DNA of 64,000 nucleotides from Vermamoeba vermiformis (Eukaryota): assembly GCA_045837725.1 (NCBI GenBank), contig JBEWZL010000178.1, positions 1-64,000 of the forward strand, given 5' to 3'. This document shows positions 22,958-48,166 of the stretch, piece after piece. Within the stretch, counting starts at the first letter, position 1. Each line of letters opens with the position of its first letter. A program made the position numbers and the translations under genes. The notes under the pieces were generated by a model, which saw nothing but the letters and a program-made list of their open reading frames with translations, searched no databases and was not told the origin of the DNA.

Positions 22958-25840
22958 ATGACTGCAATAGGCGATTTTGTAAAGTTAACGCTTCTAATAT
23001 TTTCTGTTTTGTACTTAGCGGATGCAGCTTCGAGAGAGCCTCCAGTACTCAACTGGATTCCTCGTTCGGATTGGATCAACGTAAAGACAGCATTTGGAGC
23101 GAAGGGAGATGGTTCAACGGACGACACAGCTGCCATCCAGAGTGCGCTCGACTCGCTTTCGGATACGGGCGACACTGCTGGCACTATTTACTTTCCACCT
23201 GGCACTTATAAAATAACCGACACATTGCGCATGGTCAATAAGCCCTTTTCTACGCTTGTCGGCCACGGAGGTACGAGTAAATTTAAATTTGACCCGATCC
23301 GTTAAAATTTATTTTTACAATCTGATGAAGAGCAATATTTTATACGGTAGATAGAGATTAATTTCCACTTTTATTAGTATGACGGATCTTTTAAGGTTAA
23401 ATTTGCGATTTTAACTATTTTTTGTTTAAACTTTACGGATGTACACGGTCAGGATCTTACTAATATCTTTCTAACTTTCAGGTGCGAGTATAATTGATTG
23501 GCAAGGCTCGTCTACTGCTTCAAACACGTGGATGTTCGAGAGCAATGGCAATCCTTTGGCCAGATTCGTCGGTTTGACTTTTGACGGCCACAAAAACGTT
23601 GATTATGGCTTTGTGCACTCTGCAAAGGTGAAATTCGAGAGTGGTATATTGCACGAATATAACACTTATCGAAATATTCGTGGCGATGGACTTCGTCTTG
23701 GCGGATCATTTCAAACTGACGCCAGCTCAGAAACGCAATTCAGGAACAACTTGTTTATCAATTGTAGAGCAGGCATACATATTCAAGACCCTAATTACTA
23801 TAATATGATCATTTCCGATAGCGATTTCTATGATAATGAAGTCGGCATTCGAATGATTTATTTTGCTTGCGGATCCATCCGTCGTTGTCACTTTGAGAAC
23901 AGTACCGTTACCGATCTAGATGTATGTTAAAATACTTAAATGTCATCGTTTAACATTTCTAATATACTATCTTATAGCTCGGCGAGCCTCAATTCACCGC
24001 GTCAGTTCGCATGTGCACATCTACCGGATCCAATATTTTCTTGACACACGACGCCAACAATCCTAAATATACTGTTCAAAACTGCTACGTAGAGAAGTGG
24101 AAGAATACAGAAGGAGCTATAGTAACTAAGTCAACTAAGCCGCTGCTGATCTTCGACAACACTTTTGCGAATCCACCGAACACGAATCCGCCCATCTACT
24201 TGAACCATCTTGATCAATATACTTATAGAGTCGATAAGATATTCTCTGGCAACTCTTATGAAGGCTCTACAGCGCTCTACAAGAACAACGCGGAGAAATT
24301 TCCGGTTTGGCCAGTCGATCGACCTGAACCAACAGACTACAAGCTCAATGCACCAGTGAGCTTCCGTACTATTAATGTGGCTACTGGCAGCAAGGTATTT
24401 GACGCCGTTCAAGATTTTGGAGCCAGATCTGGTGGCGATGATGGACCGAAGATCCAAGACTGCATTAACGCTGCAAAACAAGAAGGCAATGGCGCTGTTT
24501 GTTACTTGTCTAAAGGCAGCTTTCAAGTATCTACGACTATAGTAGTCGATGGATCCGATTATATCCTCGAAGGCGCTGGCTACATCACTCGCCTCAACTG
24601 GGCTGCATCCACCGCTGGAGATTTGCTTCGCGTCGAATCGCCGAACAACGTCGTTATAGCGCGCTTGTGGATCTATAAGAACGATGATGTTACTGGTACC
24701 ATTGCTATTCATCAAGTGCGCAAGCAAGGCGTTGCTTCTTCGAGCGTAGTGTACGATCGAATCTACGGAATTTTTGGATCTTACGAAGTGGATCCAGAAC
24801 CTCGCGATACTATGGTCCTTGATGGCCTTAGCACAGGCGATGCAGTCAACATTAAGCACTTGAACGGCATGCTTCGTATCAAGAGTTGCGGAAGAGCCCA
24901 CATCCACGTTGAATTTATGGATGGAAATCCACTCATCGTTGAAGGCGAAGAAGAGACTCGTGATGGCTTAATTACGGTGCTGTCAATGAACGGCATGAAC
25001 GTCCAAGTCTACGATAATCAGAATTTAATTATGGGCGACTACTATTACGAGCAATCCGGAGGCAATTGGGGCAAGTACCCTAATATTAATGCGCTGCTAG
25101 TGAAAGGCAATCCTAATAGTACGCCTGGGCGCGTGGTGGTTCAAGGCGCTAAATGCATGCTCTACGACAATAATATTCTAGGAACTATTCAAAATTATCG
25201 AGGATTATTTTCCTACGTACTCTGCAACGTGGAACTCGATAATAACGCGTTCACTGAACGAAAAGTAGTGCAATCTGGCGACAACCCACTCGACGTATTG
25301 TACCTCTCGATACTCTCAGATCAACCGTTCAACTTCTATCCATCCGGATCTGCGGTCAATTTCTACTTCTATCCCAACACTAGCGCTCTTATAGGCGATA
25401 CGGATTCATTAAGCAATGCCAAGCCATTAGTCGTACAAACACTGGACGCTTTTACCGACATGGGTCGACAAGATCTCGGATTCAACTCGCCCAACAATGC
25501 TGCTCCTGGTTCAATTAGTACGTACTCGTAATATATATATATATAATAGAATCATCGATCAATAATTATTGCAGATATCACATAATTATGAATTTTTTTT
25601 GTCGCGTACTGACTTTTCAATTTCAGGTCCTTATGGCTCCTCGTTCAATCCTAGTGCCTATTCATATCCACCTGGTGCCTATAATCCTGATGGTATGTTA
25701 TGATTACAATAGGGTAACCTGGTACTCTTACTAACTCATTCATTCCAGGAACAAAACGACCGACTACTAGCAACGCAAATTCATTCGAGCTATTTAACTT
25801 GGTGTTATTTGTACTTGTACTGGCAAGTTTGTTAAATTAA
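22958..25840 (+). CDS. Secreted, probably GPI-anchored beta-helix glycanase (two Pectate_lyase_3/GH55-like modules)
   Basis: Signal peptide; INVKTAFGAKGDGSTDDTAAIQSAL..IYFPPGTYKIT; second VFDAVQDFGA..DDGPKIQDCINAA..YLSKGSF; spliced C-terminus TSNANSFELFNLVLFVLVLASLLN*. Confidence 0.85.
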
Positions 25841-27357: not shown

Positions 27358-30300
27358 CTATGAGTCGTAATACAAGTCTCGTTGTACGCGCAAGAACTCG
27401 ACCTCTTCGTTGCGCTCTTCAAATGGCTGTGCAATCATTTTGGTCGTGCCGCTCATCAGTGACTGCGACGGCAAATTGGCGAGCTCGAGCGGCACTGCGG
27501 CAATTTGATTGTGGAACAGCGTCATGAACTCGACGTTGCGGAGGTTTCCGAGGTCTGATGGCACCGAGACGAGTTGATTGTGCGAGAGATCCAAGCCCTT
27601 CAAGTTGGTGATCTGACCAATCTCCGGCGGGAGATATTCCAATTTATTCTCCGCTAGTCGCAGCTCACGCAGCAGTGTCAATTGGCCAATCTCGCGCGGG
27701 AGATCGGTAATTCCGGACTTAACCAAACTTAGTAATTCTAGCGACTTGAGCGCAGTGATCGACGTTGGAATTCTCGAAATGAAATTTCCTCCGAGCGCTA
27801 GAATACTTAATTTGGTCAAGCACGTGATTACTGATGGAAAATAGGCCAATCTGTTGCTTTGCAGGACCAACCTTCCTAATGCGGTTAATTGCGCTAATTC
27901 TGGCGGAAGAAATGTCAGCTCGTTGTTTTGCGCGTAAAGGCTGGTGAGATGCGTCAAATTTCCGACTTGAGTTGGCAGCTGATATATGTGATTGTAGCCT
28001 ATATATAATTCGACTAAATTCGTCAAATAGCCAATCTCCGGTGGAATTCGCATGAGCATGTTGTGTTGGATGTAGAATTTGACCAAATTAGTTAATTTGC
28101 TGAAACTCGCGGGAATTTCATCAATCTCGTTCAAATTGAGCAACAAATAATTCAAATTCGTCAATTCTCCGATCGAGCTCGGCAGTGCACTTATCGAGTT
28201 GCCGTAGAATTCCAGCAATTTCAAATTAGTTAATTTTCCGATGTCTTCTGGTATGCTCGACAGGTAGTTGCTGTTGCACGTGAATTTGGTCAATTTGTTC
28301 AGTGAACAGATCGGCTCAATCGAGCTCAACTTGTTGTTGCTGAGCGTCATTTCGTAGATCTGTGTGCAGTAGCCTGCGCCGTCGGGTAACGATGAAATTT
28401 CATTTTTGTGCAGGAACAGCATTTGCAAGTTGGTTAGCCGAGAAATATCCTAAATTGGTAATAAAATTAGTAAGTAAACCGTTACTCAGTCTCAAAAATA
28501 GAACCTTGCTGATAAGCAATTAAAATGTGTAGCAATATTAATATCAATTCGATTTATCATTATGTGAAATCGGTTGGTTACAATTGTTCGTGTTTAGTCA
28601 AATGTAGAAAAAGTATTTTTAGGGAGATCCGCGACAAAAATTTCAGTGATAGTTTCCAAGGGTATTTGTCAGCATATAGTATAAATATTTTATGTAATTA
28701 AAAATGGCTGGGGTTCGATACGATAATAAATAAAATTAATAAAAATTAAATGATCTACTTACATTAGGCAGTGCCACAGCCTTGTTGTCCTGATAACAAA
28801 ATCGCGTTAAATTGACCAAGTGACCAATCTCCGCGAGTGATTGCAGCGACGAGAGGTGATTGTGCTGAACGTTCAGTGAAACGAGTTCTGTTAATCGGAA
28901 CAGCTCCGATGGCAGTGCTGTCAATTGGTTCCTGCCTAATTCGAGTAATTGCAGTTGTGTTAATTGTCCGATCTCCGAGGGTAATTCCACCAATGAATTC
29001 TCGCGCAAAAATAAAACTTTCATTTGCGTGAAATTTCCAAGCCAAGGCGGGATCGTCACCAAAACATTGCCCTGCAAATTTAATTTTTGCAAAGTTGTCA
29101 ATGACGACAGCGGGTGAGGCAGTTGCTGTATTTGGTTATAACTGAAATCGAGATCTTGAAGTTTTTCCAATTTTCCGATCTGATCCGGGATGACGGTCAA
29201 ACTGTTCGATTTGAACGACAACGTGATGATATTCTGCAAACCAGTGATATTTGCAGATAAGGTGTGGAAGATGGCGTTGTTGTTCACGAGCAATGTTTGC
29301 AGTTGTGACAAGCTGTAGAGACCTTCGGGCAAGTGATGAAAGCGGTTGTGTGACAGCACGAGCTCGCGCAGATTGACTAATTGGGAAATAGATTCGGGGA
29401 TCTAAATATAGAACTGTTATGAGTATGCTGCGATGACTTGAACTTAAAGTTTCGTTCGAACTAAAAATATTTTTCACAATTTTAACGAATTTATTAAAGT
29501 TTTTCGGTTGCCTAATTAATTATATCGAGGAAATTGGCATTTAATTGGTTAATTAGGCGAATATTAGTGCAAGGAGAGTTAGTATTGCAAAAATTTCACG
29601 ATCGGAAGTAATCTCCGAAAAGTTATTGAAGTCCTAATGGTACTAATTGAAATTATAGTACGATATAGTTATAATGTAGACTATATGTAGTGGTAAATAC
29701 GATACTTACGGAGTGAATATCGTTTCTGGCCAACAACAGCGACTGCAAATTTGTTAACGTGAAAACTGCTTTGGGCAGACTGGCAATTCTGTTCTGACGC
29801 ACGGATAAAAACGTCAATCGGAGTAATTGACTAATTTCATCGGGAATTTCCGTCACGTGATTGCCCCGTAGTGTTAGCCTTTCCAAATTTGTCAATTTCA
29901 AAAGTGGTTGCGGGATCTTGTAGAACTCATTGAAGTGCAATAAACACGTCTGCAAAGATTGCAACGCGGTGAATTCTTCGGGCAATTTGCGAATTCGATT
30001 CTTCCATAAATTGAGCAATCTAAGATGGGTCAGTCGACTGATCTGCGGGGAAATTTCCGTGATTGGTGGCGTGAAGTGTTCGAGCTCTAATAGAGGATGT
30101 TGTAGTGTACTATTCAGCTCTATTATGCCTTCAACGTCGCCTACTTTTTTCAATTTCTAAGAAAATTAAAGAATAAATTAGTTATGAAAACATATAAAAT
30201 TTCAGTACGAATCTTGCTAATGGACCTCGTAATTATTTAGAAATTATGACGCTATATTACATTAAATATTGTATAAATGTGGCTCATGATATGATTTGAT

Positions 30301-37237: not shown

Positions 37238-40200
37238 TTATTGTACGATGCAATTGTCCTTCTTTTTACCTACGTCACTAAAGTTAGAATTCTGACGTTA
37301 ACTTACACCAACACTCTACGTACCTTTCTTGCCATAAATAGCCTTCCACTCGTCATACAAATGATGATACTCAGGACCAGGCCACTGACCACGCACCACT
37401 TCTTCACGATTGCCCAGTGTCATGTCGTTCTTGAACCACGACTGTTCGTTGATGGTGTCAAAGTTGACTTGCATCCACCAAATACAATACGAGCGCAGCT
37501 GTCGCAATTCGAGCTCTTCTGCAAGTGTCAGGACACTCAGCACGTATCCGTGTGCATCGTGCTTGTCTTCTTCTTGCACCAAACTTTGCAGCCGACATGC
37601 ACAGTGTGAGGCGTATTCTTTGAGGTTCATCTGCAAAACAAATTATCAATCGGGTGTGCTTCACAAACGGCGTGCAATAAGTGAACTGACCTTGATAAGT
37701 TTTGGCAGTACTTCCATTGAATATGAACCAGGTTTGTTTTCGAAGTACACAGAGCCAGTGTACAAGAATCGTTTCACCGCTTCGAACTCCAGGTCAGTCA
37801 AGTCGACTTTGATCGTGTTGTTTTGTTCACTGTCAGCGAGAATAGCACCGAAATGATCACTTCCTGCCACAAGTAGAGCCTTGAAAAAACACTGTTAGAC
37901 AAACCATGGATAGCTCTTATCTTATGATTTGCATTTGACTTACCTTGTGACAGAACTCTCGCTTTTTGCTTGGAAGTTCAACGCACACATCAGCGAACAC
38001 AGGCACTGATGCGGTCTCGTTATTATTGTTGTTATTGTTAGCGTTGTTACTCTCAGCCAATGACAAGAAGAATCTCTTTCGCTCGTCAGATGTGAAGCGA
38101 GGATATCGTTGGAAGAATGTCAGTCCTTCTTTGACTGCCTCGACTGAGAAGTCCTTGGGCATGGGAGGCAGCGCTAAATGTACAGATTAGATAGCTATTC
38201 AGTGAACCGTGGTTGCATTCAGTGAACGTACCAGTGTAGCACGAGACCAGCACAACCAAGAACGCCTCATACGAGAAGTCTTTGACGTCAATCGTCACGT
38301 GCTCTTCACGCTTCCATTCAACAACTCGGTTAGTGAGCTTCAATGTCGTCACGTCTTGTGCAATGGTGTCTGCAACTTTGCCGGTGAACAGGTACAGCTC
38401 TTCGGTGTCAGCATTGAACGACGCTGCGTGGTACAGTCTGCTTGGTGCTTGACCTTCGAATAGGAGCTACAAATAGAACAATATTTAGCCCTTGTTATTG
38501 TTCGCAGTGTCGGCGTGTGAAATAAAATTGATAAAAAATCGATTGCGTACCTTGGTCCACTTGAGAGTGGTGTGACGAGTGTTGAGAACAAACACATCTG
38601 AAAAGTCTCTGTTCTCTTTCGCATTCTGTCCACCGTGAATAATAACGTTCTCACTGTCGATTTGTGCCATTGCAAAGCCTGTGCGTGGTTCTGGAATGTC
38701 ACCTTTGACTTTGACTTCGCTCCAAGTCTTGGTCGTGAGATCAAATGACAGCACTTCATTTAACGGTGCAGTGCCGTTAGTTCCACCGAACACAATCATC
38801 ACTGGCTTCTTCTTGTGTTTCATGAGCACTGCATGATGATTGTATCGTGCTGATGGCCAACCTTGTTCGGTCATTGCAACTTGATTCCACGTGTTCGTAG
38901 TCAAGTCGAGAATGAACAGTTCGTTACTCTTGCCACCTTCATTGTCATATCCTCCGAACACAATCATTTCATTCTCGTGCAACACTGCTGAATGACCGTA
39001 GCGAGGGGCAGGGATTGTGCCTTTTGTGTCAAGTTTGACGAACTCCAATGTCTTTGTGTCGAACACAAATGTGCTGTTCGAGTACTTGTTGCTCTTGCCT
39101 CCAAACACGTAGATCAAATGATCTTTCACCACTGCTGAGTGAAGATTGCCTTGTGGGTAAGTGCCGTTGTTGGTCAGTGCAATCGGATCCAACCACTTTG
39201 ACCCGTCTACGTGAAAGAGGGATTAATTATACGCTTTAAGAGGAGTCATAAATAGCGTACCAAATCGCAACACGTTGTTGCAAGCATTGCCTCCAATGTC
39301 AGCACCACCAATGATGTACGTGACACCGTTGATTGTCGATGCTGTTGCTCCGTATCTGGCTCCGTGGAAAGGCGGTAATGCTAATGATTCCTTCACACTA
39401 CACACCTCGAAAGATTTCTTGTGCTTTTTGGCTTCTTTTGTTTCGCTTAAACTCGTCTTCGTGAGCGTGAACATGGGTGGTAGCTCAGTTGAACCGTTGA
39501 CAAAGATCTTCTGAAACATTGGACTTGATGCACTCAACACCACTTTGTGAGCGAATAACTCTCTGTTAATAACGAGGAGAAGTTAGTGTGATCGGTGAGA
39601 TTGGTTCACGAAAGAAAAGAAGATCGAGTCATGAAAAAAAAACGAATTGGCGTACTTGTCTTGCACTCTGAAAGTGACATCTGAGAACTGTTTGTTGTTG
39701 ACAAGTGTTGCAAATCGAGCGTCAGTGAATGTCAGTGGAGATACGACGGGTGGTTCAGGTTTTGCTGGAAGTGGTGGCGGTGGATTTTTTACCGTCGGAT
39801 CTATCACGACACGAATGGCGGTATCGAACACTTCTTTCAAACCCTTTTGTGTCAGTGCCGAGCTTCATGAATGACAGGTTAATAAAATTGATAAAATGAT
39901 AAGCTGGAAGCGTTACCATTCAACGTATTTGAATGCACCGACTTCTTTAGCCAGTTGCTCTCCTTGTTCGAACGTCACCGGATCTGGTCCGAGTTCTTGA
40001 CCCCAATTATGTTGAAGATTTGCCGCAGGTCCGTCTCTTATGTCAACTCTTGTGCCGACAAGAAGGAACGGCGTGTTTGGGCAATGGTGCGTGATCTGAA
40101 GCCAAATCAGTTGGCTGTTTTACCCGATATCTCTTTCAATATTATTTTCATACCTCAGGGACCCACTATTACAAAAGGTTAGTATTTGAGGAAAGGCTCG

Positions 40201-40803
40201 GGGATCTTGTTTTTTTACCTTTTGTCTGACGTTATCATAGCTTGGTCTCCTGTTTATCGTAAAACAAACGAGAAATACGTCTATTATATTGATTAGAGAT
40301 AAAATTAACGGGTGGTTGGTCATTTTACGTGCCTGTTTGTGGATACGACAGCGGACGAAGTCGATCTGAGATACTGTTGGTTAATTATTTCGTAAATTCT
40401 ACAATTAGACGTACCATAGTCTTCAGGTCCTGCAGTATCCCACAAACCTAGATTGATTGGCTTGCCGTCGACCATCACCTTTTCGAAATTTAAGTCAGAT
40501 CTGCACGTTAAATTCTTTCGATAGCTTTTTATACTTACATTAGCACTATAGTTATCAAATACCTAAATAAATTAATTATATAAAATGCTACGGTGTTTTA
40601 ACGATGGATTCAATTTTTCAGCGCTTACCGTTGGAACGTATTCACCGGGAAAAGCATTTGTGGTGTACGAAATAAGCATGCAAGTCTGCAGAAAAATATT
40701 GTTAGTGTTATTTGACGGCACGTCCTCCAGATCCACGATGATTTATAATTTTTACCTTTCCCACAGCTCCATCACCAACAACAACGCACTTTATGGCTTG
40801 CAT
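37238..40803 (-). CDS. RhoBTB: RhoBTB (RacA-like) protein with Kelch repeats inserted in BTB1, copy 1; CaaX CIVQ
   Basis: [25 protein letters not shown]; poly-Pro; [15 protein letters not shown]; Kelch (GG..Y/W) repeats; [12 protein letters not shown]; second BTB; C-terminal QWPG motif; last exon [10 protein letters not shown]. Confidence 0.9.
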
Positions 40804-41185
40804 TTGCTAATTGAATATTAACTTGCATACAAAAAACATCGAGTTACATTTCTGTTCCTCGCTAAAATCTCGTTTCAGCTAAAGAAGTGATTCACAAAAT
40901 CATTTTCTGGGCACGTGTCAATCAGCAGCATTCGTAAAGCATGGCATCATTACAAGAGTATATTTTTATTCAAGCGAGCACAAACCCAATTTAATGTAAA
41001 CGGATGCGATTCAGTTTACGGTTTAGTCATACTTTTGACGTACTACGGTACTCAGAACAGCTAACTATGTGGCCTTCGCTTGTCTTAGAAAATCGTACAG
41101 CTGACGTACAGCGTTGCAGACCACTAATGGGTCCATGGACGCACATTCTGACTATTCGCCGGATCTTGATATGATTTCAGTACGC

Positions 41186-44100
41186 TCACTGAACTACACA
41201 ATCCTTATCCTTCTTTTTGCCTGGCGATCACGAGGTTAACTTTGACGTGAATTAACACCAACACTCTACGTACCTTTCTTGCCATAAATAGCCTTCCACT
41301 CATCGTACAAATAGTGATACTCAGGACCAGGCCACTGACCACGCACCACTTCTTCACGATTGCCCAGTGTCATTTCGTTCTTGAACCACGACTGTTCACT
41401 GATGGTGTCAAAGTTGACTTGCATCCACCAAATACAATACGAGCGCAGTTGTCGCAATTCGAGCTCTTCTGCAAGTGTCAGCACACTCAGCACGTATCCG
41501 TGTGCATCGTGCTTGTCTTCTTCTTGCACTGAGTCACGCAAATGACATGCACAGTGTGAGGCATACTCTTTGAGATTCATCTATCAAGTCGCATTAGCTC
41601 ACAATAACGTGTCGTGAACAATTCCAGCCGTGCCATTGTTACCTTGACGAGTTTGGGCAAGACCACTTTCGAGTACTCATAAGGCTTGTTTTCAAAGTAA
41701 ACGGTGCCAGTGTACAAGAATCGTTTCACTGCTTCAAACTCCAAGTCAGTCAAGTCGACTTTGATCGTGCAATGCTGTTCAGTGTCAGCAAGAATAGCGC
41801 CAAAGTGATCACTTCCTGCCGCAAGTAAGGCCTTGGGTAACATTGTTAGCAAATCTTGGATAGCTCTTTGATTTGCATTTGACTTACCTTGTGACAGAAC
41901 TCTCGCTTTTTGCTCGGAAGTTCAACGCACACATCAGCGAACACGGGCACTGACGCGTTCTCATTAGTATTGTTGTTGTTAGCGTTGTCACTCTCAGCCA
42001 GTGACAAGAAGAATCTCTTTCGCTCGTCAGATGTGAAGCGAGGATATCGTTGGAAGAACGTCAGTCCTTCTTTGACTGCCTCGACTGAGAAATCTTTAGG
42101 ACTTGGAGGTAGCCCTAATAATGAATTAGATTTCACATTTATTAATAAATGCCACATACCAGTGTAGCACGAGGCCAAAACGACCAAGAACGCCTCATAC
42201 GAGAAATCTTTTACTTCAATCGTGAAGTGCTCGTCATACTTCCAATCGACATCGTCGTGCTCTTTGAGTTTAAAAATAGTTGTTTCTTGTGCAATCGTGG
42301 TAGCAGTTTTCCCCGTAAACAAGCACAGCTCTTCTGTTTCAGCGTTGAATGACGCTGCGTGATACAGTCTGCTGAGCTCTTGATCCTCACAGTGCAGCTG
42401 CACGAAAATTAGTTAGCGTAGTCCAGAGTATTGACTTCAACGTACCTTGGTCCACTTGAGAGTGGTGTGACGAGTGTTGAGAACAAACACATCTGAAAAG
42501 TCTTTGTTCTCTTTCGCATTCTGTCCACCATGAATAATAACGTTCTCACTGTCGATTTGTGCCATTGCAAAGCCTGTGCGTGGTTCTGGAGTGTCACCTT
42601 TGATTTTGACTTCACTCCAAGTCTTGGTACTGAGATCGTACGATAATATCTCGTTCAGTGGTGTTGTACCGTTTGTTCCACCAAACACAATCATCACCGG
42701 CTTCTTCTTGTGTTTCATGAGTACTGCATGATGGTTGTATCGTGCTGATGGCCACCCTTGTTCACTGATTTTCTCGGTGCTCCACGTGCTCGTTGACAAG
42801 TCGAGAATGAATAGTTCGTTGCTCTTGCCACCTTCATTGTCATATCCTCCGAACACAATCATTTCATTCTCGTGCAACACTGCCGAGTGACCGTAACGAG
42901 GTGCAGGTACCACTCCTTTGGTGTCGAGTTTGATGAACTCCAATGTCTTTGTGTCGAACACAAATGTGCTGTTCGAGTACTTGTTGCTCTTGCCTCCAAA
43001 CACGTAGATCAGATGATCTTTCACCACTGCTGAGTGAAGGTTACCTTGTGGGTAAGTGCCATTATTGGTCAGTGCAATCGGATCCAACCACTTTGAGCCG
43101 TCTACATAACAAGCAGTTAACAAAACAATTACTGTTAATTCAAACAACAATAATTTACCAAATCGCAACACATTGTTGCAAGCATTGCCTCCAATGTCAG
43201 CACCACCAATGATGTACGTGACACCGTTGATTGTCGATGCTGTTGCTCCGTATCTGGCTCCGTGAAAAGGTGGCAACAGTACCGAGTTTTTCAAGCTGCA
43301 CGCTCCGTACGTCCTATTGAGTTTGCTTCCTGATACTTGTTCGAATGGCGTCTTCGTCAGCGTGAACATTGGAGGCAGCTCAGTTGAACCGTTGACAAAG
43401 ATCTTCTGAAACATTGGACTTGATGCACTCAACACCACTTTGTGAGCGAATAGCTCTCTGTGAATAACGAGGAGAAGTTAGTTTGATTGATGAGATCGTT
43501 AAACGTACTTGTCTTGCACTCTGAAAGTGACATCTGAGAACTGTTTGTTGTTGACAAGTGTTGCAAATCGAGCGTCGGTGAATGTCAGTGGAGATACGAC
43601 GGGTGGTTCGGGCTTTGGCGGAGGTGGTGGCGGTGGATTTTTGACCGTCGGATCTATCACCGCTCTGATTGCCGTATCAAAAACCACTTTGAGACCTTGT
43701 TGGGTCCGCGCCGAGCTATGAATATGTACAGCAAGTTAGTATCAGAGATCCATTGTAACAAAACACGGGTGTTACCATTCGAGGTATCTAACAGCTCCAA
43801 CTCGTTTAGCCATCGCTTCGCCTTCTTCAGTGGTAATAGGCTCCGGCCCTAAATCTATTATTGTGCCGTAATGGTTGTACGGGGAATCTCGCAGATCAAC
43901 TTTCGTGCCAATCAGAAGGAACGGCGTGTTTGGGCAATGATGCGTAATCTAACGATTGTGAGCCATATGTATATATATTCGTATAAAATAGATACCTCAG
44001 GCACCCACTACGTGATCGCGTTAGAATTGTGTACAGAAATAAATAATTGCTTTTACCTTGGCAGCTACATTGTTAAAGCTATTTCTACGGTGGATTGTAA

Positions 44101-44645
44101 AGCACACCAAAAACACATCTATTTAATGGCAATCAACAATGGGCTTGCGCAATGCGAAAGATCCGCTTACCAGTTTGGGGATACATGAGCGGACGTAGTC
44201 GATCTGCGATGAAATTTAGATGGAAAATCAAGCAACATAAATAAACGTACCATAGTCTTCACCGCCAGCATTGTCCCACAAGCCTAGATTGATTGGTTTG
44301 TCATCTACCATCACCTTTTCGAAATTTAATCCAGAGAGCTAGTAAAATTCTATCAATCATTTTATCGTCTTACATTAGCACTGTAGTTGTCAAATACCTG
44401 CAGGAATAAATTAAAGAAAATAGGTTAGGACAAAAAATTGGAAAATTAAATTAAGTACTTACAGTTGGAATATATTCGCCAGGAAAACCATTTGACGTGT
44501 ACGATATAAGCATACAAGTCTGGAAAAAAAATATTATTAGCAGGATCGTTTGAGACTGAGAATTAGAACTTCAGGATTTGAAATCCGAAAAAATCACCTT
44601 TCCGACTCCACCGTCCCCTACAACGACGCACTTTATAGCTTGCAT
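41186..44645 (-). CDS. RhoBTB: RhoBTB (RacA-like) protein with Kelch insertion, copy 2; CaaX CVVQ
   Basis: [25 protein letters not shown]; same architecture and intron positions as copy 1; last exon [11 protein letters not shown]. Confidence 0.9.
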
Positions 44646-44830: not shown

Positions 44831-45890
44831 CTATTGCACGATACATTCTTTTTTCTTATTTTTGCTGGCTGTCGCTTCTCGATCTGTCGTAGCTCGACCA
44901 TTTGTAAAATTATTCGGATTGATTACAACTCTAACTGCAGTTTCAAACACATTATGTAAACCGTTTTGGGTGCGCGAGGAACTGAAGCAAAATATTATGA
45001 GAGGTCGTCATTGTAGCTCCAGTACTTACCATTCTACGTATTTAACAGCACCAATTTGTCGTGCCATTTCTTCACCCTCTGCTGTTGTAATAGGATTTGA
45101 GCCTAGAGTCTCAGTCTTACCATGGCTGGTAAAATTCTGATCGCGCAGATCTGTCTTCATGCCCACGAGCAAGAACGGTGTCTCCGGACAATGATGTCTA
45201 ACCTGCCAATGCGTTAATTACTTAACATTACCTATCGTGGCGGATTCGTACCTCAGGCAGCCACTGTAATCAAAATAATTAGGACCCACAAACAAAAACC
45301 AAAGTAGTTGCGGACTTACCGTCGTTGAGATGTTTGTGAAGGTGTCCCTACGATTGATTGCAAAGCAAAGCAAGAATACGTCTGGTTTGAAAATTAATTT
45401 GACTTGTTGGTTTAATTTTGCGGTTAAGGATCTAACCTGTTTGCGGATACGATAGTGCACGAAGTGGATCTGAATTCTAAAAGGTTACAATAATTCAAAA
45501 TAATTGCTCAGCAACGTGCTTACGGTAATCGTCTACTCCAGCGCTGTAATTCTCCCACAAAGCTAAATCGATTGGCTTTCCGTCCACTTTAATCTATTAA
45601 CGTTAAGAATATAGTGGAAAATTGACTAATACTCCTCGGTCCTTTTTCTTACTCTCACATTAAAATTATCGAAGATCTACAAAATAAATAAATTAAAACT
45701 TATTATTCAAATTAATTACTGGCGGCGAAAAAAGACTTACTGTAGGAACAGAATCGTCAGTAAATGCATTATTCAAGTACGTTATTAGCATAGAAGTCTA
45801 AATGCTGGTTGAGTAAATTCTAGACAAATCGTAACTACGCACTTTGCCGACGTGCGGATCTCCAACTACGACACATTTTATCTTTAGCAT
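44831..45890 (-). CDS. Atypical Rac/Rho small GTPase; CaaX CIVQ
   Basis: [44 protein letters not shown] micro-exon; GMKTDLR; ECSS; KNKKKECIVQ*. Confidence 0.85.
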
Positions 45891-46028: not shown

Positions 46029-48166
46029 TTATTTATAACTCTCGTTTGCAGTTGGAAATCCTTTTTCAAGGATGTAATTGTACACTGTTGGCGAATCACT
46101 TCGGCGCGTGGATCCCTCGTCATTATTAGTTGCACTAGCTTCAGTAGTTTGATTATTATTATTATTGGTGACCTTAGTAGTGGGCATAATGACTCGCCAG
46201 CCTTTAGCAGCCCCAGAAAATTCGTTGCTAATGCTGGTCGTGGTAGTCTCCACTTCAATGCTGCTGTTGCTGCTCGTCGGTGCTGTGACAGCTCTAGGAC
46301 TAGACACCGTGGACCTGAATATGACGCGATTGCTCGGACTCGTGCCAGGTGACACCATATTAGGGTTATTCGGCGGACTACTAGGATTGCTCGTGACTTC
46401 AAATGAGATTGTGTTCACTGCTGGAGCACTCAAACTGGTCTGTAGCGTGCCTTGGTTCGGATTCAATTGCTGACTCTTGTTACGCGCAATTGACAGCGGT
46501 CCTGACTTTTCCGCTTCTAAAAATAGAACAGTATTAATACGGCGTCAAAAAGATGCATTGCGCTTGTACGATAAGAAAGCTATTCAATAGCTTCTATAAT
46601 TACCTCTATGAAGATTAGGCGAGGAGTTCTGTTTGACTTGATTGGGCCTGTTCTGTGCACGCGTCACAACATCCTTTGCAATACTTCCAAGAGCATCACG
46701 GAGAGCAATTGAAGGGTCACTGTGCGACATCGGAACTATCCTCGGTGAATTAGCGTTGCTGTTGTTGGCGCTACTCGCATTACTGGAAGTTGCGGAGGTG
46801 TTGGCACTGTTCGTGTTGGAACTCTCACGTGAGCTATTTTGAGCTTGTAATAGTAACTGTCGTTGCGTAGGTGGCGGGGTCGAGTTCATATCAAACTCTC
46901 CTTGCTCCGATTTTGCGATGAGTTCTTGTTCCAGATCCGTCAAAGCTGCTTGGCACGCGGTGCAGATTTTGATTGGCTTGTCGAATCCAAGTCTCGGCTG
47001 TGGCTTTTTAGTGGCTATTAAGCACTTTGAGTCGACAATAAGGCCACATAAGCGACAGTGATGCTAAAAATAGAACGTTAGATCAGGATCGATAAACCAT
47101 AAAAAAACTTCTGAGTTAGTTGAGGTTACTTACGCGTCTATTAACGTAATTAAATGCAGTACCGCAGACCTTGCAAGATTTGAAAAGAATATCTGGCTTC
47201 CAATGAGATTTAAATTGCAAGTTGGTGACTTTCAGTGAACGGAGCAAATAGAAGTACCGCACGACGATCTCGTTTCCATATTCGGAAATATTTGCAGGCA
47301 CAACGAAGGTCTGGCTCGGAGTGTGCACCAATTCTTTCAAATTTTTGCAATGAACGATGGCTGGCGGAATTTCTATGTCTGGAAGTTCGACCATTGATAA
47401 GAACCGCAAGCTGGTCATTTGGGAAATTTCATCGGAAATTGACTTGATCTTGTTACTGTCCAACAATAACAGCTGAAGATTTCCTAATTTGTAAAGTTCT
47501 TTTGGGAATTCAGTGAGCAAGTTGAAAGGCAGCGTCAAAATTTCCAAATTAGTTAATTCGCTGATTTGAGTTGGTAATGAGGACAGGAGATTTCGCTCGA
47601 GATTTAATTCCTTCAATTGCACGAGCTGGCTGATTTGTGCTGGCAAAGCTGTCAATAAATTTTCCGACAAGTTGAGACTGGTCACTGCCGCCAAATTGTT
47701 CAACATTAATGGCACCGATGGAATTCTATTCCGCGACAAATTGAGTTCTATGAGCTGGTTCTCTGAAAGTCCTTCTAAATTAGGAAAAGAGTCCAAGCCA
47801 CAGTTTTTGAGGATTAATCGTTGCATAGAATTCGGCCATAATTGTCCAAATTGATTCCCTGACTTGAAGAATGTGTTCCTATAATTATTATAACTATATT
47901 AATACCATGAAGAAATTCCGCAAAGAACAGAATCTTTTGCAATCTTGATCCGCCGTCAAAAATCAGATCCGTAATAAACAATTGCAGAATGTTATTATAT
48001 AGTGAGATATAATCATTATTTGCATTTGTACTTACATGTCCTTGGTATTGGTCATTTCTATCGTCGTGGATTGTCTTTCAGTGAACCCCGCCAATTTGTC
48101 GATAATTTTTTGCAATTCTTTCGACTCTTGTATCGTCAATTTGTCTGCTAAATAGTTCGTATACAT
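46029..48166 (-). CDS. LRR + FYVE zinc finger protein with Ser/Asn-rich tail
   Basis: LRR exon 47116-47826; WKPD..CKVC..F..VNRR-HHCRLCGLIVDSKC..KICTAC FYVE; low-complexity C-terminal exons. Confidence 0.85.

Follow-up and report, generated by a model that had tools for sequence, protein, structure and literature searches.

Two paralogous genes, A and B, lie in tandem on the minus strand and fill positions 37238-44645 of the window, i.e., the 64,000-nucleotide stretch of Vermamoeba vermiformis DNA that was analysed (contig JBEWZL010000178.1, positions 1 to 64,000). Position 37238 is the end of the stop codon of gene A, and the ATG of gene B is at position 44645. Each gene comprises 16 exons, and the products of 878 aa (gene A) and 876 aa (gene B) contain no internal stops. 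The 15 introns per gene are 45-93 nt long and follow the GT-AG rule throughout, except for one GC-AG intron in gene A. Gene models were built by hand from a genomic alignment of A versus B and verified by translation; no annotation was used. Contigs from the public run X5, for which the library type is unrecorded and "RNA" is only a guess, contain eleven spliced joints that equal predicted introns, including those flanking the two micro-exons of 12 nt and the one at the GC donor. The features are as follows:

37238..40803, minus strand: gene A, full CDS, 16 exons, 878 aa, C-terminus ...KKKDNCIVQ; open frame, splice sites and six run X5 joints
40803-40756, 40685-40629, 40562-40539, 40478-40415, 40365-40333, 40280-40219, 40165-40154, 40095-39917, minus strand: gene A, exons 1-8 (high to low)
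39862-39656, 39562-39261, 39206-38551, 38466-38232, 38173-37944, 37879-37691, 37630-37324, 37269-37238, minus strand: gene A, exons 9-16 (high to low)
38173/38232, 39562/39656, 40097/40219 (micro-exon letters), 40280/40333, 40365/40415, 40685/40756, minus strand: gene A, introns with X5 joints
39802..40803, minus strand: gene A, Rac-like GTPase, aa 1-180 over nine exons, one of them the 12-nt micro-exon 40165-40154; P-loop GDGAVGKT, Gln61 replaced by Pro
39457..39735, minus strand: gene A, BTB1 N-half, aa 203-264, following the Pro-rich linker; N-terminal helix, B1, B2, A1, A2 and one extra strand
38326..39417, minus strand: gene A, Kelch propeller, aa 278-595, exons 10-12; six blades, closed by the N-terminal strand; Pfam E 4e-54
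38046..38313, minus strand: gene A, BTB1 C-half, aa 600-669; B3, A3, A4, A5 according to the AF2 model of P0001
37568..38003, minus strand: gene A, BTB2, aa 684-787; Pfam matches in exon 14 and, as a second BTB stretch, in P0001
37241..37567, minus strand: gene A, BACK-like tail, aa 788-866, and polybasic CaaX; QWPGPEY motif, final 10 aa on their own exon (37269-37238)
41186..44645, minus strand: gene B, full CDS, 16 exons, 876 aa; hand-built model and five run X5 joints
44645-44598, 44519-44463, 44397-44374, 44314-44251, 44203-44171, 44118-44057, 44007-43996, 43948-43776, minus strand: gene B, exons 1-8 (high to low)
43715-43509, 43457-43159, 43101-42446, 42397-42160, 42114-41888, 41831-41643, 41580-41274, 41220-41186, minus strand: gene B, exons 9-16 (high to low)
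42113/42159, 42397/42446, 43715/43776, 43950/44057 (micro-exon letters), 44118/44171, minus strand: gene B, introns with X5 joints
43649..44645, minus strand: gene B, Rac-like GTPase, aa 1-180; P-loop GDGGVGKT, Gln61 replaced by Gly
43352..43588, minus strand: gene B, BTB1 N-half, aa 201-262 (Pfam and model)
42254..43315, minus strand: gene B, Kelch propeller, aa 275-593; Pfam E 1.2e-53
41987..42241, minus strand: gene B, BTB1 C-half, aa 598-667 (model coordinates)
41518..41947, minus strand: gene B, BTB2, aa 681-784 (Pfam and model)
41189..41517, minus strand: gene B, BACK-like tail and polybasic CaaX, CVVQ (model)

Both proteins share the same order: a Rac-like GTPase, a Pro-rich linker, the N-terminal half of BTB1, a six-bladed Kelch propeller, the C-terminal half of BTB1, BTB2, a BACK-like tail and a polybasic CaaX motif. 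This order had been proposed in a preliminary description of the locus and was recovered by exon-wise Pfam scans and the AF2 model of P0001. Evidence on folds stems from two relatives, P0001, which is 73-75% identical to the window proteins and served as their proxy, and P0290, a paralog without Kelch repeats (58-70% identity). The gene models contain a P-loop and a Rac-like switch I. Ras was matched with E 4e-05 in exon 8 of gene B and with E 4e-30, 1e-45 and 2e-47 in P0001, P0115 and P0133, respectively. The Pro columns of the linker between GTPase and BTB1 are invariant over 14 RhoBTBs. Kelch-repeat families were matched at E 1e-53 and 4e-54 in the two proteins, and the preliminary estimate of about five to six repeats agrees with the six four-stranded blades of the P0001 model. 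The BTB2 match in window exon 14 is weak (E 0.004, 17.7 bits, under the 20.5 cut-off); in relatives, Pfam located BTB2 at residues 633-725 of P0068 and 736-828 of P0115, and AF2 at 632-726 of P0001. The tail matches BACK_BPM_SPOP weakly (E 0.14), and its W, P and Y columns are kept in plain and Kelch-type RhoBTBs alike. Every complete family member ends in a CaaX box, X being Q or M, and the predicted CaaX tail is indeed present in both window proteins (CIVQ in A, CVVQ in B).

The claim that a complete propeller splits BTB1 was borne out by several lines of evidence. Pfam BTB positions 2-48 are matched by the N-half in family members and the window. In a 100-aa exon of gene A, BTB profile positions 23-48 lie at residues 2-26 and a Kelch repeat starts at 68-88, while exon 12 encodes the last propeller blade together with the 'AFLVVL.SCYT' segment. 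In the P0001 model, the secondary-structure elements are arranged in the order B1, B2, A1, A2, propeller, B3, A3, A4, A5, the C-half being represented by E561-565, H570-582, H593-605 and H611-623. No Pfam family was found on the 170-aa piece with the BTB1 C-half of Kelch-bearing proteins. When Kelch types are compared with plain RhoBTBs, the short B3-A3 segment is put in the wrong place by MAFFT as well as by hhalign; its assignment rests on AF2, on a phmmer alignment of the C-half of the Kelch-less paralog to the B3-A3 segment of SPOP, and on the fold of that paralog. The AF2 model of the P0290 BTB1 region (pLDDT 84.3, pTM 0.78) was used in a wide fold search, where the best 50 matches listed all had a BTB/POZ fold (classical BTB, KCTD/T1, Skp1, Elongin C). 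The best was the SLX4 BTB domain with Z 11.2 and 108 of 119 residues aligned, and the matched model range, 1-136, covers both halves; KEAP1, KLHL11 and KLHL3 in Cul3 complexes were also matched (Z 7.6-8.5). Because the Kelch-less paralog folds as a BTB domain, the two halves are modelled to form a single BTB fold. The propeller is inserted between helix A2 and strand B3, the same point at which the human RhoBTB2 insert is found (PMC1257465). Past A3, the segment of Kelch types is shorter than that of plain RhoBTBs, so that BTB1 may or may not offer a surface for contact with Cul3.

An erroneous fusion of two genes into one model, or decaying pseudogene copies, could mimic such an arrangement. 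The gene models are our own with no annotation behind them, the window's own proteins are absent from the protein database searched, and RNA-seq runs X21-X23, labelled with the same species as the best DNA match, yielded just 2, 8 and 7 reads out of some 13 million records apiece. Not one of these reads reached 99% identity, and they are too few to speak for expression in that organism. No RNA run is listed as a match to the stretch, and metagenomes with a small share are left out of account. However, both BTB1/Kelch boundaries lie within exons: the BTB1 N-half shares one exon with the first Kelch repeat and the last blade shares another with the BTB1 C-half, which excludes the Kelch region as a separate transcript, an outcome by which the preliminary reading would have fallen. 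In addition, the eleven splice joints in X5 contigs are exact, ORFs of 784-920 aa without introns and with this domain order come from five named species as well as from environmental transcripts, and dN/dS between A and B amounts to 0.16 for the whole and 0.15 for the Kelch region, with neither stop nor frameshift in 2 x 2.6 kb. We thus regard an artefact or pseudogenes as extremely improbable, and A and B appear to be expressed and selectively maintained tandem paralogs.

RhoBTB proteins are conserved between amoebae and humans, and in the latter they count as candidate tumour suppressors. The structural hallmarks of the family are found in the window proteins, namely a Rho domain, a Pro-rich linker, a BTB1 divided at A2/B3, an uninterrupted BTB2 and a helical BACK-like tail with the W-P-P/G...Y pattern also present in human RhoBTB1-3, Dictyostelium RacA and invertebrate 'racA-like' proteins. 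A C-terminal CaaX is likewise described for RhoBTB3 and many non-vertebrate members (PMC4931677). Profiles of Kelch-type and plain RhoBTBs align end to end (hhalign, probability 100, E 2e-135, 555 columns); in BLASTP, the C-terminal exon of the window proteins matched a RacA-like protein of Dictyostelium weakly (E 0.001). Ras, BTB and Kelch come together in 8 of the 120 family-profile matches listed. The same order is encoded by transcriptomes of five named Tubulinea, Pyxidicula, Arcella, Copromyxa, Rhizamoeba and Amoeba proteus, and Kelch types form their own branch in a quick tree (SH-aLRT 94). Judging by sequence, A and B are members of a RhoBTB branch that extends across Tubulinea. The RacA genes described in PMC8305917 are those of Dictyostelia and Variosea. 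Whether the layout is already common among described RacA genes had been raised earlier; within that material it is not theirs, but it is widespread in Tubulinea transcripts that have not been described. While the RhoBTB family is known, a Kelch propeller, U-box or RING within its BTB1 appears to be new, in that no description was found in searches of open full-text literature. For human RhoBTB2, PMC1257465 gives the insert as an unstructured stretch of about 115 residues with unknown function; the insert of the window proteins consists of about 320 aa folded into six Kelch blades.

In sequence searches, the best solved relative of the propeller was the Kelch domain of LZTR1 (E 5.5e-37); KLHDC10 scored 2.9e-24, and the sole KLHL/KBTBD-type chain among the matches listed was KBTBD10 (E 1.9e-07). 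The best fold matches were KLHDC3, KLHDC10, KLHDC2 and the LZTR1 Kelch domain bound to MRAS, KRAS or RIT1 (E 2e-21 to 4e-18), with TM values, normalised to the target, of 0.80-0.83 for KLHDC2 and LZTR1 and an identity of 24-26% for LZTR1; KEAP1 ranked 46 or lower. By sequence and model, the propeller is thus LZTR1/KLHDC-like and not KLHL-like. KLHL and KBTBD proteins such as KEAP1, KLHL3 and KLHL11 have the order BTB-BACK-Kelch with a C-terminal propeller. The window proteins resemble them in that BTB and Kelch propeller reside on one polypeptide, but lack both this order and a KLHL-type propeller sequence; their propeller sits in the BTB1 loop, upstream of BTB2 and the BACK-like tail. The supposition that the architecture was assembled independently of KLHL proteins therefore holds. 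LZTR1, a Cul3 adaptor for RAS-family GTPases, consists of an N-terminal Kelch and two intact BTB domains (BTB-BACK) and has no GTPase domain. One propeller of the same type and two BTB domains are thus common to both, but nesting in BTB1, the Rho head and the CaaX lipid-anchor signal set the window proteins apart, and propeller type is the only membership feature of LZTR1 that they share. KLHDC2, KLHDC3 and KLHDC10 recognise C-degrons for Cul2 ligases, and each is an isolated propeller equipped with a BC/Cul2 box. They provide the best fold matches (E 2e-21 to 1e-18, target-normalised TM up to 0.83), yet at 19-23% identity. Proteins of Pelomyxa, Physarum and Mastigella also combine a Rac-like domain, Kelch and a cullin-adaptor module, which is however an F-box (Cul1 type), in another order and with no nested domain. 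The Kelch of one of them, Physarum P0292, is 38% identical to the window Kelch and about as near to it as those of Tubulinea members.

With regard to the GTPase head, switch II is covered by 11 distinct clade sequences, and each of them has Pro, Gly, Arg or Asn instead of Gln61; of 23 plain RhoBTBs, at least 90% keep the Gln. A Rho switch driven by hydrolysis is therefore unlikely on sequence grounds, and because Gln61 is replaced in every Kelch-type member examined, the head is more probably a GTP-locked module than a timed switch. The description of the proteins as Rho-gated is not supported in this form.

On balance, we favour by a modest degree the reading that A and B, members of a RhoBTB branch with a Kelch propeller in the A2-B3 loop of BTB1, would work as farnesyl-anchored, GTP-locked Cul3 substrate adaptors; the adaptor function is inferred by analogy. 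A CaaX box with X = Gln leads to farnesylation according to established rules, and together with the polybasic stretch it would keep the protein on a membrane. The Rac-like head would bind GTP without hydrolysing it and could be a constitutive targeting, effector-binding or auto-inhibitory module instead of a timer. The body of BTB1, BTB2 and BACK-like tail would dimerise and recruit Cullin-3 as human RhoBTB proteins do, whose BTB1 binds Cul3 (PMC4931677, PMC1257465). Projecting from BTB1, the propeller would offer a substrate-binding surface that ordinary RhoBTBs lack, and substrates could be other small GTPases, by analogy with LZTR1.

Some Kelch proteins bind actin, and the propeller might accordingly contact actin or an actin regulator in a cytoskeletal scaffold in which the BTB domains merely oligomerise and the GTP-locked head draws PAK/WASP-type effectors to a membrane patch. 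The Rac-like switch I, the shortening of BTB1 past A3 and the fact that the Cul3 role of the window proteins rests on analogy would fit, as would the binding of PAK and WASP family proteins by the GTPase domain of Dictyostelium RacA (PMC8305917). Such a scaffold is nevertheless rather unlikely in our view: the nearest solved propellers, LZTR1 and then KLHDC2, KLHDC3 and KLHDC10, are all substrate receptors of cullin ligases, sister proteins have a U-box or RING at the same insertion site, and in other amoebae an F-box goes together with a Kelch of about equal similarity. A refinement of the adaptor reading, not in contradiction to it, is that the propeller mainly engages a small GTPase, either its own Rho head in cis, resulting in auto-inhibition, or Ras/Rho substrates. 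The Kelch domain of LZTR1 binds GDP-bound RAS proteins, and its standing as best solved sequence relative, the MRAS, KRAS and RIT1 complexes among the best fold matches and the two BTB domains of LZTR1 all argue in this direction; human RhoBTB heads, moreover, fold back onto BTB1 (PMC4931677). However, the similarity to LZTR1 is only at the level of the repeat scaffold, and we assign this refinement a low probability as well. A complex prediction for Pyxidicula P0133 (Kelch 290-615 with Rho 1-185), run without alignment and without controls, returned a score of 0.00 and a mark of 0.34, which speaks neither for nor against such contact.

PMC4931677 and PMC1257465 leave the substrate choice of RhoBTBs and the purpose of the insertion that splits BTB1 unexplained. 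Other RhoBTBs carry further modules at the BTB1 site, a U-box in P0154 and a RING in P0157. The placing of a Kelch, U-box or RING there suggests the BTB1 loop as the working end of RhoBTB proteins. More tentatively, and possible rather than probable, the A2-B3 loop may be a recurrent slot for modules of the ubiquitin system; the insert of human RhoBTB1/2 would then mark a site for presenting substrate or E2/E3, and the Tubulinea proteins would be self-contained, membrane-tethered, GTP-locked Cul3 arms acting on small GTPases in an LZTR1-like manner. Close paralogs with and without the propeller are tractable natural constructs. They may reveal in what way a BTB domain accommodates another domain nested within it and how a Cul3 adaptor is controlled by a Rho head, and also whether ubiquitination directed at GTPases, of the kind carried out by LZTR1, goes back further and takes more forms than assumed. 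Note that, if read as a slot, the loop holds Kelch in Tubulinea, a U-box, its position checked, in Rhizamoeba and a RING in P0157, and that the Kelch-less paralog represents a case in which the module is removable without harm to the BTB fold. BTB and U-box also occur together, by Pfam content only, in Arcella, Mastigamoeba, Pellita, Luapeleamoeba and Anaeramoeba.

The region at 37238-44645 on the minus strand contains two head-to-tail paralogs, genes A and B, in eukaryotic DNA with a G+C content of about 40%. The 16 exons of each gene were set from a genomic alignment of A with B, in which exons are 80-100% identical and introns are divergent, and were then verified by translation. An automatic gene model was rejected because its Rho part was mis-spliced.

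37238-40803, minus strand: gene A coding sequence, 16 exons, 878 amino acids (A/B genomic alignment, translation check)
41186-44645, minus strand: gene B coding sequence, 16 exons, 876 amino acids (A/B genomic alignment, translation check)

Genes in the window have short GT-AG introns with a frequent CTAAC-like branch site, and those of A and B are 45-93 nt long. Intron 5 of gene A (between exon 40333-40365 and 40280) is GC-AG, while its counterpart in gene B is GT-AG. Both genes include a 12-nt micro-exon (40154-40165 in A, 43996-44007 in B) that encodes WVPE of a KWVPE motif. The limits reported in the preliminary description, 37238 and 44645, are exactly the stop codon of A and the start codon of B, and the domain order proposed there is confirmed: a Rac-like GTPase, a proline-rich linker, the start of a BTB domain, a long Kelch region, a short segment terminating in ...CYT[AG], a second BTB domain (BTB2), a helical tail carrying QWPGPEY and the CaaX end KKKD(K)(N/D)C[IV]VQ. 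In exon-wise Pfam scans, Kelch-repeat families were matched with E values of 4e-54 (A) and 1e-53 (B), exon 8 matched Ras, the start of exon 10 matched positions 23-48 of the BTB profile, and exon 14 gave a weak BTB match (E 0.004). In gene A, a Kelch repeat begins 40 residues beyond the BTB match within the same exon 10, and exon 12 contains both the last propeller blade and the C-terminal half of the first BTB domain (BTB1). As both BTB1/Kelch boundaries lie within exons, making the Kelch region a gene of its own would mean cutting exons apart, which rules this out.

That Rho, BTB and Kelch parts belong to a single spliced transcript is also borne out by X5, a public sequencing run with a different organism label and no library type on record. 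Contigs from this run gave 61 placed records, 21 at ≥99% and 40 at 95-99% identity, and their spliced joints coincide with modelled introns, six joints in A and five in B. Those in A include the GC-donor intron and the micro-exon, the letters of which stand between both sides; the micro-exon of B is confirmed by X5 joints as well. Other X5 joints link A with B at homologous exon borders, a pattern that contigs of a closely related organism should produce; the splicing is seen in such a relative. Among the public runs, four DNA-type rows from one sample matched 49-91% of the words of the stretch, and three RNA-seq runs labelled with the same species as the best-matching DNA row yielded 2, 8 and 7 placed reads, none at ≥99%.

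Four concordant lines of evidence, namely a structure model, Kelch-less paralogs, sequence and fold comparison, support the initial proposal that the BTB1 halves form one split domain around the propeller. The fold evidence was taken from two proxies, P0001, a protein of the same architecture (73-75% identical to A and B), and P0290, a Kelch-less paralog (58-70% identical). The AF2 model of P0001, computed from a 29-row alignment including the window exons (mean pLDDT 79.4, pTM 0.47), has strand-strand-helix-helix at residues 177-205 (pLDDT 84-93), a long strand followed by six four-stranded blades at 233-551, and then a strand at 561-565 and helices at 570-582, 593-605 and 611-623 (pLDDT 82-94) ahead of BTB2. 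The predicted order of elements is B1 B2 A1 A2, propeller, B3 A3 A4 A5. The first strand of the propeller appears to close its last blade in the model; if so, the propeller ends are adjacent, as insertion into a loop requires. The site is the same as in human RhoBTB2, where a 115-residue BTB1 insert is placed between A2 and B3 (PMC1257465).

P0290, a full-length Vermamoeba vermiformis transcript of 556 amino acids ending in CLVQ, and P0291, a JGI-derived protein 71-84% identical to P0001, lack the whole propeller, and in both a short linker without sequence conservation (about 16 residues in P0290) connects the N-half to the C-half. The two are close paralogs or orthologs of A and B and represent natural, clean deletions of the nested propeller. 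The BTB1 region of P0290 matches Pfam BTB in two stretches (E 1.5e-14), and in an alignment with SPOP its N-half falls on B1-A2 and its C-half on B3-A3. A fold model of this region (149 amino acids; pLDDT 84.3, pTM 0.78) drops below pLDDT 50 in the linker only. When searched against 48,161 chain representatives, it matched 55 chains at Z ≥5, the best 50 of which are all of BTB/POZ fold (classical BTB, KCTD/T1, Skp1 and Elongin C). The top match was SLX4 (Z 11.2, 108 aligned residues), with a model range of 1-136 that spans both halves, and SPOP and the Cul3 complexes of KEAP1, KLHL11 and KLHL3 had Z values of 7.6-8.6.

The claim that the assembly arose independently of KLHL proteins is likewise supported: the propeller is not of KLHL type, because LZTR1 and KLHDC propellers rank far ahead of KLHL/KBTBD by sequence and of KEAP1 by fold. 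For exon 11 of gene A, the best solved sequence relative is the Kelch domain of LZTR1 (E 5.5e-37), followed by dynein-associated Kelch domains (6e-29), KLHDC10 and KLHDC3 (about 1e-24) and KLHDC2 (3e-18); the sole KLHL/KBTBD chain among the matches listed has an E value of 1.9e-07. In the fold search, the top matches of the propeller (E 2e-21 to 4e-18, TM up to 0.83 normalised to the target) are KLHDC3, KLHDC10, KLHDC2 and the LZTR1 Kelch domain bound to MRAS, KRAS or RIT1, and KEAP1 ranks 46 or lower.

The Ras+BTB+Kelch combination first noticed in the window recurs elsewhere. A search with a 337-residue continuous reading of gene B gave 1453 matches among 5362 candidates, and the best 120 listed included at least three relatives with all three domains, P0001, P0068 and P0115. 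P0001 (JGI source, 822 amino acids) is 73% identical to this query by BLASTP and 75% and 73% identical to the full models of A and B, respectively. Its cluster comprises five 822-residue copies on contigs of 3.2-6.3 kb, which are intron-free, since their reading frames are uninterrupted. A profile of six Ras+BTB+Kelch proteins matched 657 of 7999 scored proteins at E ≤1e-20 (best 120 listed), with at least eight proteins carrying all three domains plus one truncated protein among those listed. A library scan (best 150 listed, 13 Pfam-scanned) contributed P0137, P0138 and P0144. The named sources are all transcriptome assemblies: Pyxidicula operculata, Arcella intermedia (a 'BTB domain-containing protein' in UniRef), Copromyxa protea, Rhizamoeba saxonica and Amoeba proteus. 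Taxonomy lookup placed Vermamoeba and three of these five in Tubulinea, to which Arcella and Amoeba proteus belong as well. For this gene, the closest relative with a named source is that of Vermamoeba vermiformis, which makes a tubulinean amoeba the likely origin of the window. Across lineages, family members share just 29-35% identity with P0001, which means that the architecture is old.

When the Kelch-type profile was compared with one built from 23 plain RhoBTB/RacA-like sequences, the two were collinear end to end (1-861 versus 1-586; probability 100, E 2e-135, 555 columns), with the propeller as a single gap. A quick maximum-likelihood tree was calculated from 64 rows hand-picked from the library scan and the profile search (62 database proteins) and completed by the models of A and B (586 of 1955 columns, SH-aLRT support only), excluding the partial proteins P0141, P0286 and P0291 and substituting longer isoforms for shorter ones. 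All 10 Kelch types and P0290 lie on one side of a branch with a support of 94, and the window proteins, P0001 and P0290 group with a support of 100. As P0290 is nested within the Kelch-bearing group, the most plausible explanation for its missing propeller is a clean, secondary loss.

The P-loop and switch I of A and B are Rac-like. Gln61 is catalytic in GTP hydrolysis by Ras and Rho proteins. It is kept in none of the 11 distinct sequences of the Kelch-type clade that cover the site: the residue is Pro in A, P0001, P0115, P0133, P0283, P0284 and P0389, whereas B has Gly, P0137 and P0286 have Arg, and P0290 has Asn. In contrast, it is at least 90% conserved in plain RhoBTBs (n = 23). Together with established Ras/Rho biochemistry, the replacement predicts loss of GTP hydrolysis in this clade. 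Every complete member terminates in a CaaX box whose last residue is Q or M, the farnesyl type under the accepted rules, and in the window proteins this box is preceded by a lysine-rich stretch. Such an anchor is not new to the RhoBTB family, as many plain non-vertebrate members also have a CaaX end.

Taken as a whole, we lean slightly towards a mechanism in which a farnesylated C-terminus would anchor the protein to a membrane, the Rho head would be locked in the GTP state, the BTB pair and the BACK-like tail would mediate dimerisation and presumably bind Cul3, and the nested propeller would capture and hold substrates. A ligase role is made likelier by two observations. The A2-B3 site of BTB1 carries a U-box in P0154 (Rhizamoeba) and a RING domain in P0157; these belong to 12 RhoBTB relatives with other ubiquitin-system modules, the position of the module being established for these two and the remaining ten (P0298, P0302, P0305, P0306, P0307, P0321, P0378, P0354, P0356 and P0381) being judged from Pfam lists. 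U-box relatives occur, by Pfam content only, in Arcella, Mastigamoeba, Pellita, Luapeleamoeba and Anaeramoeba. The other observation is a Physarum Rho-Kelch-F-box protein whose Kelch region is 38% identical to that of the window proteins, as close as the Kelch of their own family. Proteins of this kind (P0227, P0288, P0292, P0319, P0344, P0353 and P0359, from Pelomyxa, Physarum, Mastigella and unnamed sources) represent another solution for linking a Rho head with a substrate receptor of a cullin ligase. Note also that a Mataza relative has VWA and UBC domains by its Pfam list, and that relatives from Stenamoeba (PF13920) and Vannella (source name) carry a RING-type annotation only.

In passages of reviews, the BTB1 insert is described as being of unknown function, and for the RacA proteins of Dictyostelia and Variosea no more than two BTB domains are given (PMC4931677, PMC8305917). 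The word 'Kelch' is absent from the main text of PMC8305917, and no description of a RhoBTB with a nested Kelch propeller was found in the full-text literature searched.

Between A and B, the overall dN/dS is 0.16, with 0.15 for the propeller and 0.09 for the Rho domain, values indicating that both copies are selectively maintained. dS differs greatly along the genes (1.66 in the Rho exons, but 0.18 around the N-terminal half of BTB1 and 0.33-0.75 elsewhere, including 0.40 in Kelch), and intron 9 is nearly identical in parts. This patchiness suggests that the duplication is old and that gene conversion has since made the copies partly alike again. A further Rho gene and several other reading frames, the latter recognised by eye from the ORF list, lie in the window.

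44831-45890, minus strand: third Rho gene, stand-alone, directly upstream of gene B
27358-30156, minus strand: long leucine-rich-repeat ORFs
46584-47898, minus strand: leucine-rich-repeat ORF adjoining a Cys-rich FYVE-like segment
20093-21586, minus strand: 497-aa intron-free repeat protein
23475-25531, plus strand: 517-aa ORF

The third Rho gene has its introns at the same positions as the Rho-coding portions of A and B and likewise contains a 12-nt micro-exon (45263-45252, WLPE); it has spliced joints in X5 contigs and ends in a tail of the same kind (KNKKKECIVQ). Its P-loop reads GDPHVGKT; switch II is longer and the Asp of DxxG is missing (WENYSAGVDDY). The gene may encode a divergent GTPase or a pseudo-GTPase and may be either a descendant or the ancestor of the Rho module in A and B. 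The 517-aa ORF resembles a secreted beta-helix enzyme.
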